Shown piece after piece: positions 3,001 to 6,000 of a stretch of DNA of 18,298 nucleotides; position 1 is the first letter of the stretch; every line of letters starts with the position of its first letter. Made by a program: the position numbers. Source of the stretch: a virus (taxonomy: Duplodnaviria; Heunggongvirae; Uroviricota; Caudoviricetes); IMG/VR virus record IMGVR_UViG_2529292905_000017, positions 1-18,298 of that record. One strand, written 5' to 3'.

Positions 3001-6000
3001 TGCTTTTTCCAGATTGGTGATATCCTGCTCCAGAGCGGACAGATTTTCAGCCTGCTTAGCCCTGGCTTCATTGGCCCATTTCAGATCCTGCGCTGCATTA
3101 ATTTTCTGGTGCATCCACTCATAAAGTTCATCATCGGTATAGTCTGGCGCGATGATGACGGGTTCTCGTTTCTGCATGTCGGCTCCTTGTGGTTAGCGTT
3201 GCCTGCTTTTAACCACGTCAGGCGAGGTGGTATCCTCTGAGGGGTCTGTTACTCGAGAGGAAATTGGTTATGAATACAATCAAGTTTTCTTGCCCAGAAT
3301 GTGGTGGCGAAGTCTTTGACACATCCTTTAAGCCGCAGGGCTCTGACAGTTTCGCGGGAGCCATCTGCAAAAATTGTGGTCACCTTGTAACTGAAGATGA
3401 GTCCTCGCAGTTCGATGACGAAATCGTTGACAATATCTTCGGTGCACTCACCAGAGACTTTCTGAAGTAAAGGCGCATACCGCTTAGTTACCGCTCTGAT
3501 AACTCTTACCTGTCCTGCAATGGCGCTGATGTCAATATAAAGCGCCATTGCTGCTTCTTTGCCGATCCCGGGATGCCTTCCATTCTGATGTTTGACTTCG
3601 CCCACTGAGAAACCCTCTGTTTCCCCTTAACGCCGGGGTAGCGGAACAAAAACCTGCTGCATAGTTATTAAAGTTGAACCCTGCCGTCATGTTCATACGC
3701 CTCGGGCTGGCTACTTAACCCCTGACCACTGCCGGGTAACTCGAAGTATTTCCCTGCGTTCTGTGGGGCGGGGTGGGTTGGTATTTTTAGTTTAATAAAC
3801 ATTAAACTTAAGTCAAGTAAAAACTAAACCGCGGGACATAACAAACACAACGCTTTTGATAAAGTCGTTGCGGTTGTTATGTTTCTATTGGTAGTGAAAG
3901 TTAGGGAAACTGGCGTCTTGCGTGGATCACGTTTACTACTTCAACGCTTGATGTTGTTACGCGGTATAGAATTATATAGTTAGGGTGGGCTACAATCTCA
4001 CGCAAGCCAGGTACTCTGTCGCTTGGTGGGTATAAATACGGATGTTCGGATAACGGCAGCACACAACCCCTTAATCGCTGCCATAAGCGTTCAGCCGCAT
4101 CTATGTCGAAACGAGCAATATAACTAGTTATATCATCTAGGTCGGTATCTGCGCTTTCAAGCCATAACACGGGTAACATTTTACTGCTTGCTCCGTTCCT
4201 TGCGCATCTTAGCAAAGCGTTCTGCCATTCTGCGCTCAACTTCGTCATGGGGAATTGCTGGGCGCGGATCTGCAAGGCTCGTTGCTACTTTCGCACGCAG
4301 CCATTCGTTGTAACTGTTTTCTTGTTCAATGGTTTCAAATTCAGAAACCATTGGTGAAAGGGCTCTATTCATGTTTCCTCCGGTTTTATAACTCAGGCGC
4401 GGCGGCATTTTTGCGCCGCAATCCATCTCGCTATGAGATCTTCCATTGATTCTTTTTTCTGCTTTAACTCGCTGATTATCTGGCGTTGCTCATCCTCAGG
4501 GAAGGCTGAAAAAATCTGCAATAATTCCAGTTGATTAGACGTTAACCCTGCATGTGGTGGAGAAACCCCCGGTTGTTCTGCGTATTCCGCATCCAGATAC
4601 CCTTCCGGCATCCCGTATGTTTGCTCTATTCTTCTGGCAGCCTTTTCTCCAAACGAGGCTCTCCCACTCATTAGTTGAGATAGGTAGCTCTTCTCTTTGG
4701 GTGGCAGAGTTTTATCTTTAAACCACTCCTTGAGACGTAAACGGCGAATTTCTTTTTTTGCATGTGGTAATTATCTTTAGTAATCACTAAACAAGCAAAT
4801 ACTTGACTTAATGGTTTATTAAACACTAAACTCGCAAAAAAACACTAAACCGAGGAAGGTATGACATTAAAAGAGTTTATTAAATCATTAAGGGTTGGTG
4901 ATGCTAAGAAATTCGCGGCCAGACTTGGTGTATCGCCATCTTACTTATCGCAAATGGCGTCTGGACGAACAGCTATATCTCCAACCCGCGCCCTTATGAT
5001 CGAATCTGCGACGGAAGGCCAAGTAAGTAGGGCGGAGCTACGACCCCATGATTGGGAGCTTATTTGGCCTGAGTATGCGAGCGGCATTCGTTTGGGGCAA
5101 ACACATGTAGTTCATGCTGAAGGTGATTGTAGTGCATGCTTATCTGATGGAGTTGATTCATGAAAATCAAGCATGAACACATCCGCATGGCGATGAATGT
5201 CTGGGCGCATCCGGACGGCGAAAAAGTACCGGCTGCGAAAATTACCAAAGCGTATTTCGAGCTGGGAATGACGTTCCCGGAACTGTATGACGACAGCCAT
5301 CCGGAAGCCCTGGCCCGTAATACCCAGAAAATTTTCCGTTGGCTGGATAAAGACACCCCTGATGCTGTTGAAAAAATGCAGGCTCTGTTACCGGCGATCG
5401 AAAAGGCGATGCCGCCTTTGCTGGTGGCCCGTATGCGCAGCCACAGTTCTGAATATTACCGTGAGATCGTCGAACGGAGGGATCGGCTGGTGAAGGATGT
5501 CGATGATTTTGTTGCGTCAGCGGTTGTTTTGTATGACCAGATGAATCGCGGCGGCCCGGCAGGGAATGCTGTGGTGATGCACTAAAAGCACGGTGTTCGG
5601 GGGTTTTATGAGCAGCAAGCTTCATGGTCTTGTCTGGGAAGGGTGCGCCTTCACCGGCATGATCTTATCCAGGGTGGCGGTTATGGCCCGTCTTGCAGAC
5701 TACAGCAATGACGAGGGCGTGTCATGGCCTGCCATTGAAACTATCCGGCGTCAGATCGGTGCAAGAAGTGAATCCACAGTGAAATCGGCTATTGCAGAAC
5801 TGGCGAAAGAGGGCTGGCTGACGAAGGAAGAGCGTAAGGTCGGTGGGCGTAATGTAAGCAATATCTATCGGCTTAATGTGGAAAAACTCGAAGCAGCTGC
5901 TGCGGCGGCGCGTGAGTCATATAAACCGAAAAGAAAAATTAGCCCGGCAAAAAATGACCCGTTAACAGTTGACCCGTCAAATATTGCCCCCTCAACGGTT

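Follow-up and report, generated by a model that had tools for sequence, protein, structure and literature searches.

An 18,298-nt stretch of a virus of the Caudoviricetes (IMG/VR record IMGVR_UViG_2529292905_000017; the whole stretch is called the window below) carries two blocks of related repeats, one on either side of an immunity and toxin-antitoxin region. The locus raises the question of whether these blocks form the left and right control regions of a phage immunity switch, as an earlier note on this DNA had proposed from an inverted pair of promoter-operator blocks at 3781-3835 and 4780-4855. We are almost certain that they do: the lambdoid cryptic prophage CP-933P has an immunity switch of which the two blocks form the OL/PL and OR/PR-PRM regions. 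The OL/OR reading is correct, and it is already known from an experimental study (Jurenas et al. 2021, mBio 12:e02947-21, PMC8630535). Since that work on CP-933P included start mapping, footprints, and reporters, the finding as such adds little; two modest points go beyond it, the family-wide conservation of the operator frame GTTTA-N8-TAAAC with its layout of one OL plus one OR, and a homopolymer frameshift in the paaR2 of the window.

Identity with CP-933P and published evidence

Between positions 3300 and 5300, identity to O157:H7 chromosomes (CP-933P/Sp12) amounts to 99.9-100%, and alignment showed both repeat blocks to be 100% identical to E. coli O157:H7 CP-933P (Sp12). Differences from CP-933P are confined to the flanks and to paaR2; they comprise A7 instead of A8 at paaR2 codons 2-4, one G66V substitution, and the loss of dicB through a 1651-bp deletion. 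The published primers F/R-PL, F/R-PR, FL1/FL2, and Footprint1/2 all match the window exactly; the corresponding fragments are given in Table 1 together with promoters, operators, and genes.

Jurenas et al. (2021) named PR933P and PRM933P with OR1-3 and IR1-4, as well as PL933P with OL1-3. PR933P and PRM933P lie within the 97-bp paaR2-ydaS intergenic region, with transcription starts mapped by 5'RACE. Binding at OR was demonstrated by EMSA, and DNase I footprints there covered 78 bp for PaaR2 and 27+32 bp for YdaS. PL933P and OL1-3 are located beyond parE2 and use the same -35 and -10 elements as PR; a PL933P-gfp reporter was active and was repressed about 100-fold by PaaR2 or by YdaS, each acting alone. 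The same authors described four 18-bp inverted repeats with the consensus GTTTAGTAA, a leaderless paaR2 mRNA whose 5'RACE start coincides with the start codon, and PaaR2 octamers in solution (PMC8630535). Repression of PR, PRM, and PL in vivo as well as bistability are thus experimentally documented, and bistability disappeared in stop mutants of either paaR2 or ydaS. The architecture put forward in the earlier note has been demonstrated for this very sequence, by 5'RACE, EMSA, OR footprints, and the PL reporter (PMC8630535). A search of the available library on the PDB entries 7NKV, 8C3K, and 8C3L gave no relevant paper.

Table 1. Promoters, operator sites, genes, and published experimental fragments mapped onto the window
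Feature	Position	Strand	Basis and remarks
PL reporter fragment	3783-3900		Published primer mapping
PR/PRM fragment	4763-4836		Published primer mapping
EMSA probe	4764-4860		Published primer mapping
DNase I footprint probe	4715-4902		Published primer mapping
PL (PL933P)	3789..3816	-	Promoter scan; -35 TTGACT 3816..3811, 16-nt spacer, -10 TAAACT 3794..3789
Main OL palindrome GTTTAATAAACATTAAAC	3790-3807		Exact frame match; on the - strand, the outward arm plus T is the PL -10
Second OL site GTCAAGTAAAAACTAAAC (GTTTAGTTTTTACTTGAC on the - strand), putative	3812-3829		Good arm is the fourth ACTAAAC; other arm is the PL -35
Stable hairpin	3836..3882	-	Inverted repeat between parE2 stop codon and OL
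parE2 (toxin-antitoxin cargo)	3901-4179	-	ORF and RefSeq annotation of identical O157:H7 sequence
paaA2 (toxin-antitoxin cargo)	4181-4372	-	ORF and RefSeq annotation of identical O157:H7 sequence
paaR2, CI-like repressor gene	4393..4763	-	Leaderless ATG 4763..4761; frameshifted in the window
PRM (PRM933P)	4770..4798	-	Read from sequence; -35 TTGCTT 4798..4793, 17-nt spacer, -10 GATAAT 4775..4770
OR palindrome over PRM CTTTAGTAATCACTAAAC (published IR1)	4775-4792		One-mismatch frame match; fills PRM spacer
PR (PR933P)	4803..4832	+	Promoter scan; -35 TTGACT 4803-4808, 18-nt spacer, -10 TAAACT 4827-4832
OR palindrome over PR -10 GTTTATTAAACACTAAAC (published IR3)	4814-4831		Exact frame match
Fourth OR site (published IR4)	4833-4850		Good right arm ACACTAAAC only; 3' of PR -10, in ydaS leader
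ydaS, Cro-like regulator	4861..5163	+	ORF; Pfam YdaS_toxin and HTH_3; competes for same operators (published)

Operator palindromes

The core operator has the form GTTTA-N8-TAAAC, an 18-bp palindrome, and its right arm provides the -10 element TAAACT. Besides two exact copies and one copy with a single mismatch (Table 1), the window contains no other match to this frame; these three matches compare with 0.40 expected, and only 2 of 200 shuffles reached three. The half-site ACTAAAC, suggested before as the operator unit, is the reverse complement of the core of the published consensus and also of the family-wide arm GTTTAGT. A search for further copies found four exact occurrences (1.48 expected), all inside the two blocks (3823, 4786, 4825, and 4844), and CACTAAAC occurs three times in the right block exactly where it had been reported (4785-4792, 4824-4831, and 4843-4850). 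The longer core TACTTGACTTAA does occur in only two copies in the window, at 4800-4811 (+) and 3808-3819 (-), the left one having previously been placed 11 nt too far to the right, at 3819-3830.

What had been taken for simple direct repeats are 18-bp palindromes. Both promoters do point outward, as proposed; all four ACTAAAC copies are on the + strand, however, as the operators are palindromes, so that the left block is not a plain inversion of the right one. The bounds 4780-4855 given for the right block cut off the left arm of its first palindrome and the PRM -10 (4770-4775). The leftward, leaderless PRM within this block had been overlooked.

The assignment of IR1, IR3, and IR4, as well as of the PRM hexamers, is our reconstruction from the text of the paper plus the sequence. 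IR1 lies within the PaaR2/YdaS footprint probe and the EMSA fragment and is conserved in the family as GATTAGTAnTnnCTAAAC. The fourth OR site, in which the conserved left half is absent (PMC8630535), adjoins the ydaS ribosome-binding site GAGGAAGG (4852-4859); among the family members compared it was found in CP-933P and phage Evi only. OL blocks of other genera likewise have GTTTAnTTTTTAC-TTGAC upstream of their main palindrome, and the second OL site is a candidate binding site, judged by its sequence.

Promoters and transcript boundaries

The outward TTGACT/TAAACT promoters described earlier were recovered in both blocks by the promoter scan. PL lies inside the published PL933P-gfp fragment; its transcript would start near 3782 and runs leftward, towards ydfC and DicF. 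PR drives ydaS-ydaT, and its published 5'RACE start agrees with the predicted promoter. For PRM, the start is the A of the paaR2 ATG (4763), and the hexamers are compatible with the start mapped by 5'RACE in the published work. The -35 hexamer of PRM and that of PR stand back to back (AAGCAA-ATAC-TTGACT).

The hairpin at 3836..3882, in the interval from the parE2 stop codon to OL, folds at -24 kcal/mol (z = -5.05; none of 200 shuffles was as stable), and clear hairpins with T-run terminators occupy the equivalent position in two related loci (L004 and L026). It is probably the 3' end or terminator of the paaR2-paaA2-parE2 transcript, which it would separate from PL. Neither a scan of the whole window against Rfam nor a permissive one of 3400-5300 identified an RNA family in the PL leader or in the blocks, where the sole match, of the hairpin to an miRNA (E = 0.11), was due to chance. 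We also considered an antitermination RNA of the nut or put type in the PL leader; this leader (3606-3783, - strand) showed no unusual folding stability (z = +0.9), and the idea was dropped. For the ORFs downstream of PL (3249-3605, 3532-3696, and ydfC), no informative function emerged from Pfam and PHROGs.

Frameshift in paaR2

A feature missed by the earlier note concerns the repressor gene itself. In the alignment, the A run at 4753-4759 comprises seven residues compared to eight in O157:H7, i.e. a 1-nt deletion; consistent with this, the window contains no exact match to the A8-bearing published primer F-1-PaaR2. A7 shifts the frame after codon 3 (the intact PaaR2 N-terminus is MQKKE), and the window therefore lacks an intact paaR2. 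The change affects the regulator gene and not the operator blocks. PaaR2 may, going by this reading frame, not be produced in the strain from which the window derives, and PaaR2-dependent control may consequently not operate there.

It is conceivable, though in our judgment somewhat less likely than not, that the source strain is a paaR2 null in which YdaS alone works the operators, leaving the locus locked into ydaST-on. The deletion is seen against both O157:H7 and the published primer, the leaderless ATG reads a frame of only 30 codons (51-aa ORF, 4671-4826), and the published paaR2 stop mutant lost the RAE2-on subpopulation. Three of 592 genomes moreover carry the A7 allele, although their left flank differs. 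Against a genuine mutation stand the rarity of the allele (0.5%), the origin of all three A7 genomes in one study, and the classic proneness of homopolymers such as this 8-nt run to errors in sequencing or assembly. If A7 is real, the switch would be one-sided in the strain of the window.

Conservation among related prophages

Searching a phage collection with PaaR2 yielded 5 records, and diversity was therefore taken from the genome collection. The counts below refer to 30 related loci from many genera or to the 29 independent loci (149 kb) that were left once two CP-933P copies had been set aside. GTTTA-N8-TAAAC occurs exactly twice in 22 of the 30 related loci, one copy lying over PR and the other, accompanied by an outward -35, downstream of the repressor gene. 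In the 29 independent loci, 48 exact palindromes were counted vs. 0.27 in shuffles (shuffle maximum 3). An exact palindrome is present upstream of the repressor start in 28 of 30 OR regions (the window and 29 loci), the PR palindrome being about 50 bp from this start in most loci. On the outward strand, TTGAC or TTTAC always precedes the copy downstream of the repressor gene by 3-5 nt. The repressors share an N-terminal helix-turn-helix with the invariant pattern EKSYLSQL..G..SFGE.AARR.E, and this conserved domain matches the conserved operators. Some relatives, such as L020 and L025, have longer repressors (210 aa), with the N-terminal domain in common and a different remainder; Pfam and PHROGs scans of the cargo ORFs of L020 and L025 gave no informative function.

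The main OL palindrome is 1024 bp from the OR palindrome in the window, and the corresponding distance in relatives ranges from 512 to 2360 bp. Spacing is thus not conserved, although lambda looping likewise tolerates varying distances. The two regions could accordingly be independent promoter-operator sets that share their regulators, with neither long-range cooperation nor a DNA loop. We regard this as unlikely, even though each promoter was repressed by itself on plasmid reporters and looping in the published work rests on the analogy to lambda and on PaaR2 octamers in solution (PMC8630535). Those octamers are equally a property shared with lambda CI, and 22 of the 30 loci have kept a single OL together with a single OR. 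On the preferred reading, octameric PaaR2 may, by analogy with lambda, bridge OL and OR over about 1 kb.

Ordinary toxin-antitoxin autoregulation, with the repeats bound by PaaA2-ParE2, would fit the position of the blocks around the pair and the habit of most type II systems to repress themselves. We rejected it as highly improbable: PaaA2 has no detectable DNA-binding motif, control is exerted via PaaR2, YdaS, and YdaT (PMC8630535), and relatives such as Klebsiella phage 5 LV-2017 and Yersinia aleksiciae have the same OL/OR pair with no toxin-antitoxin pair in between. The least probable explanation, a chance resemblance of AT-rich sequences or a promoter duplication without operator function, can draw on the AT-richness of both blocks, on the possible coincidence of a single shared 12-mer, and on the 3 matches to this 12-mer at up to 2 mismatches (0.99 expected), but is already refuted by the published footprints and reporter data (PMC8630535), quite apart from the confinement of ACTAAAC to the two blocks and the excess of palindromes at two fixed positions across genera.

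Comparison with known systems

A close parallel to the OL/OR pair of CP-933P is that of lambda, with CI and Cro. Shared features include (i) divergent PR and PRM promoters with several operators (here the palindromes at 4775-4792 and 4814-4831), flanked by a repressor gene read leftward and a cro-like gene read rightward; (ii) beyond the repressor operon, a further set of operators with PL directed outward (here TTGACT-16-TAAACT with the palindrome at 3790-3807, kept in 22 of 30 loci); (iii) a leaderless repressor mRNA, two regulators competing for the same sites, and repressor octamers; and (iv) cargo within the OL-OR interval, rexAB in lambda and paaA2-parE2 in CP-933P, where this pair lies between the repressor gene and OL. 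In contrast to lambda, with three operators per side, CP-933P has four 18-bp GTTTA-N8-TAAAC-type palindromes plus overlapping pseudosymmetrical operators, and no relationship of its proteins to lambda CI and Cro is detectable by sequence. The OL-OR distance of about 1.0 kb is also shorter than that of lambda, which is about 2.4 kb. A search of PaaR2 against Pfam gave no match at all, including none to an S24 self-cleavage domain, in line with the published lack of a peptidase motif (PMC8630535); lacking this domain, PaaR2 is not inducible through RecA.

Gene content links CP-933P to two further prophages. Its leftward operon has ydfC, DicF RNA, and dicB (the latter in O157:H7), as does Qin (DicA/DicC, ydfABC-dicF-dicB), and its rightward operon has homologues of ydaS and ydaT, as does Rac (RacR/YdaS/YdaT). 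The CP-933P repressor nevertheless belongs to another family, the operator sequences differ, and YdaS and YdaT share no more than 26% and 31% identity, respectively, with their Rac counterparts (PMC8630535). Type II toxin-antitoxin autoregulation is similar insofar as palindromic operators overlap a promoter that drives the toxin-antitoxin genes, but PaaA2 has no DNA-binding domain according to the paper, the operators belong to the prophage switch, and operators of this type are also found in relatives with no toxin-antitoxin pair.

Proposed operation and significance

In both outward promoters, PL and PR, the -10 element TAAACT is part of the outward arm of an 18-bp palindrome, where a bound regulator dimer would block RNA polymerase. 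The CI-like PaaR2 and the Cro-like YdaS compete for common sites and would bind directly at OL as well: PaaR2 turns off PR and PL and, at a low level, stimulates PRM, whereas YdaS preferentially shuts off PRM. Such competition yields a bistable switch, with paaA2-parE2 carried as cargo in the OL-OR interval, as rexAB is in lambda.

Tentatively, and with more doubt than confidence, the OL/OR pair may be seen as one instance of a widespread, nucleotide-conserved immunity cassette consisting of a PaaR2-type N-terminal domain, a YdaS-type Cro, and GTTTA-N8-TAAAC operators. Its carriers would be prophages of Escherichia, Klebsiella, Yersinia, Photorhabdus, Xenorhabdus, and Erwinia, Burkholderia phages, Massilia, and fungal endosymbionts, with the C-terminal halves of the repressors and the repressor-to-OL cargo varying between prophages. 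Such prophages might cross-regulate each other and, separately, the A8 run of the leaderless paaR2 might be a slippage-prone off switch.

A real regulatory architecture can be recovered from sequence alone, as the earlier note illustrates. The conserved frame and the layout of one OL plus one OR narrow down the candidate binding site of PaaR2 and YdaS, and this layout marks the interval from the repressor gene to OL as a cargo slot.

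Published identity of the region

Many E. coli O157:H7 chromosomes match positions 3300-5300 of the window at 99.9-100% identity; the genes annotated there encode a ParE-family toxin, a RelB-type antitoxin, a hypothetical protein (paaR2), a transcriptional regulator (ydaS), and YdaT. Judged by its sequence, this interval is the immunity region of the cryptic prophage CP-933P/Sp12. Since the OL and OR blocks are both 100% identical to O157:H7 and the primers of Jurenas et al. (2021; PMC8630535) match the window exactly, the earlier note's interpretation of two outward promoter-operator blocks is right and already known. 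It is supported by work on the same sequence: the PR933P and PRM933P starts were mapped by 5′RACE in the 97-bp paaR2-ydaS intergenic region, paaR2 was shown to be leaderless, and binding at OR was detected by EMSA and by DNase I footprinting, with 78 bp protected by PaaR2 and 27 + 32 bp by YdaS. A PL933P-gfp fusion was repressed about 100-fold by PaaR2 or YdaS, and the locus was bistable, with paaR2 or ydaS stop mutants each lacking one of the two states (PMC8630535). The paper also describes four 18-bp inverted repeats, evenly spaced and with half-site consensus GTTTAGTAA, along with three overlapping operators (OR1-3).

Operators and promoters

Direct inspection of positions 3400-5300 bore out the described repeats and promoters, apart from the coordinate of one repeat copy. 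The 12-mer TACTTGACTTAA, proposed as a core shared by both blocks, has exactly two copies in the 18.3-kb window, at 4800-4811 (+ strand) and, as its reverse complement, at 3808-3819 (− strand), 11 nt from the 3819-3830 assigned to it. CACTAAAC occurs three times in the right block, at 4785, 4824, and 4843, as claimed. ACTAAAC, the suggested operator half-site, is the reverse complement of the consensus arm GTTTAGT; its four exact copies in the window (3823, 4786, 4825, and 4844; 1.48 expected) all fall inside the two blocks. As every copy is on the + strand, the left block is not a simple inversion of the right one. A consensus scan recovered the TTGACT/TAAACT promoters of both blocks, directed outward as described.

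Both blocks are built around an 18-bp palindrome, GTTTA-N8-TAAAC; the window holds no match to it beyond the three listed in the table (0.40 expected). In both outward promoters the -10 hexamer is the outward palindrome arm TAAAC plus the following T, so a bound operator would mask the -10. At OR, IR1 occupies the PRM spacer, and the PRM hexamers, as read from sequence, fit the published leaderless paaR2 start (PMC8630535). The PRM and PR -35 hexamers stand back to back (AAGCAA-ATAC-TTGACT), which accounts for the TACTTGACTTAA core common to both blocks. The site numbering applied here (IR1, IR3, IR4) is our reconstruction from the published text and the sequence. IR4 is confined to CP-933P and phage Evi, being absent from the other 27 family loci.

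Features of the immunity region and related loci (L-coordinates are internal to each locus)
Feature	Position	Strand	Description
OL palindrome	3790-3807		exact GTTTA-N8-TAAAC
OR palindrome, IR3	4814-4831		exact GTTTA-N8-TAAAC
OR palindrome, IR1	4775-4792		one mismatch
Second OL site (putative)	3812-3829	−	GTTTAGTTTTTACTTGAC; one good arm, other arm is PL -35
IR4	4833-4850		third CACTAAAC; downstream of PR -10, in ydaS leader, adjoins ribosome-binding site
PL	3816..3789	−	TTGACT-16-TAAACT; consensus scan
PR	4803..4832	+	TTGACT-18-TAAACT; consensus scan
PRM	-35 4798..4793; -10 4775..4770	−	TTGCTT, GATAAT; start at A of paaR2 ATG (4763); read from sequence
DicF RNA	2565-2616	−	Rfam, 76.7 bits
Published PL reporter	3783-3900		
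Published PR/PRM fragment	4763-4836		
Published EMSA probe	4764-4860		
Published footprint probe	4715-4902		
Published whole immunity clone	3606-5607		
Cargo, CP-933P (window)			paaA2-parE2
Cargo, Yersinia aleksiciae	L020 3197-4088		two small function-unassigned ORFs, unrelated
Cargo, locus L025	3345-3970		two small function-unassigned ORFs, unrelated
Cargo, Klebsiella phage 5 LV-2017	L003 2860-2995		none

In the switch, PaaR2 (CI-like) and YdaS (Cro-like) contest the palindromes. PaaR2 turns off PR and PL and, when present at low level, stimulates PRM; PRM is the first promoter turned off by YdaS, and two heritable states result (PMC8630535). Direct regulator binding at OL and looping between OL and OR by octameric PaaR2 are inferences, as is the position of the PL start. 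PL drives function-unassigned ORFs followed by ydfC and DicF RNA, and in O157:H7 also dicB. Pfam and PHROGs scans of the ORFs downstream of PL found no function, and the PL leader displayed no Rfam family or unusual fold.

Variation within the prophage

In paaR2 codons 2-4 (4753-4759, − strand), the window has A7 versus A8 in O157:H7 and the published primer, a 1-nt homopolymer deletion that shifts the frame, so that the leaderless ATG reads only 30 codons. Of the 592 complete E. coli genomes that contain the region, only three (ETEC1732, 1734, and 1749, with a different left flank) have the A7 allele, which may be a homopolymer sequencing error or a real null or recurrent slippage mutation. 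Relative to O157:H7 strain 4276, a single substitution at 4565 replaces Gly with Val at PaaR2 residue 66; the same change was deduced for strain fS25a, whose paaR2 protein accession differs from that of strain 4276. Also relative to strain 4276, a 1651-bp deletion (between 2544 and 2545) eliminated dicB and a DUF1482 gene and truncated an exonuclease gene from its 5′ end; DicF RNA now directly adjoins the remaining exonuclease ORF. The late prophage part carries two tRNA genes (13973-14045, 14150-14223) and a full-length STnc100 sRNA (14923-15112; 128 bits).

The repressor gene and OL bracket a cargo slot whose contents vary by locus. A long, stable hairpin with 22-nt arms (3836-3882; −24 kcal/mol, z = −5.05, − strand) separates the parE2 stop codon from OL and has no T run directly after it; at the same position upstream of OL, loci L004 and L026 have clear hairpin-plus-T-run terminators. 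CP-933P and the ETEC1732 prophage remain homologous for about 170 bp left of OL, where the similarity breaks off (window ~3612; L033 ~3700); this places the left mosaic boundary of the immunity module some 170 bp downstream of PL. On the far side of the boundary, ETEC1732 has DUF1391 and ydfB genes and the window an ECs_2282-type zinc-ribbon gene.

Conservation across genera

PaaR2 relatives were compared in three phages and 27 genome loci, from genera including Photorhabdus, Xenorhabdus, Yersinia, Erwinia, Morganella, Raoultella, Enterobacter, Arsenophonus, Massilia, and Mycoavidus; in many, similarity is limited to the N-terminal 58-64 residues. Nucleotide-level conservation of OR extends to a Burkholderia phage, the common sequence being cat-N7-8-ATTTTGATTAGTAAtnnCTAAACAAGCAAATACTTGAC-N3-5-GTTTAGTGTTTAATAAACT. 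In nine Photorhabdus/Xenorhabdus loci (L005-L011, L017, L018), the distance from the repressor start to the OR palindrome is 96-358 bp versus ~50 bp elsewhere, and the leaderless arrangement has probably been lost; in L017, the gap contains an inserted tandem array whose units (ACACATAACACTATTTACCGT) are roughly 20 bp long.

In 22 of the 30 loci, the exact frame GTTTA-N8-TAAAC has exactly two copies, one over PR and one downstream of the repressor gene. With the two CP-933P copies set aside (29 loci, 149 kb), 48 matches were found versus 0.27 in block shuffles (maximum 3). Read in the direction leading away from the repressor gene, every downstream palindrome is preceded by TTGAC or TTTAC at a distance of 3-5 nt, giving a 16-18-nt spacer to TAAACT, and most have an extra GTTTAnT arm immediately before the -35. 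The OL-OR distance is 1024 bp in the window and ranges from 512 to 2360 bp. The repressor N-terminal domains, solved for PaaR2 (7NKV, 8C3K, 8C3L), contain an invariant EKSYLSQL..G..SFGE.AARR.E; conserved operators are therefore matched by a conserved DNA-binding domain. This conservation of the OL and OR palindrome pair across genera is what the present analysis adds to the published work.
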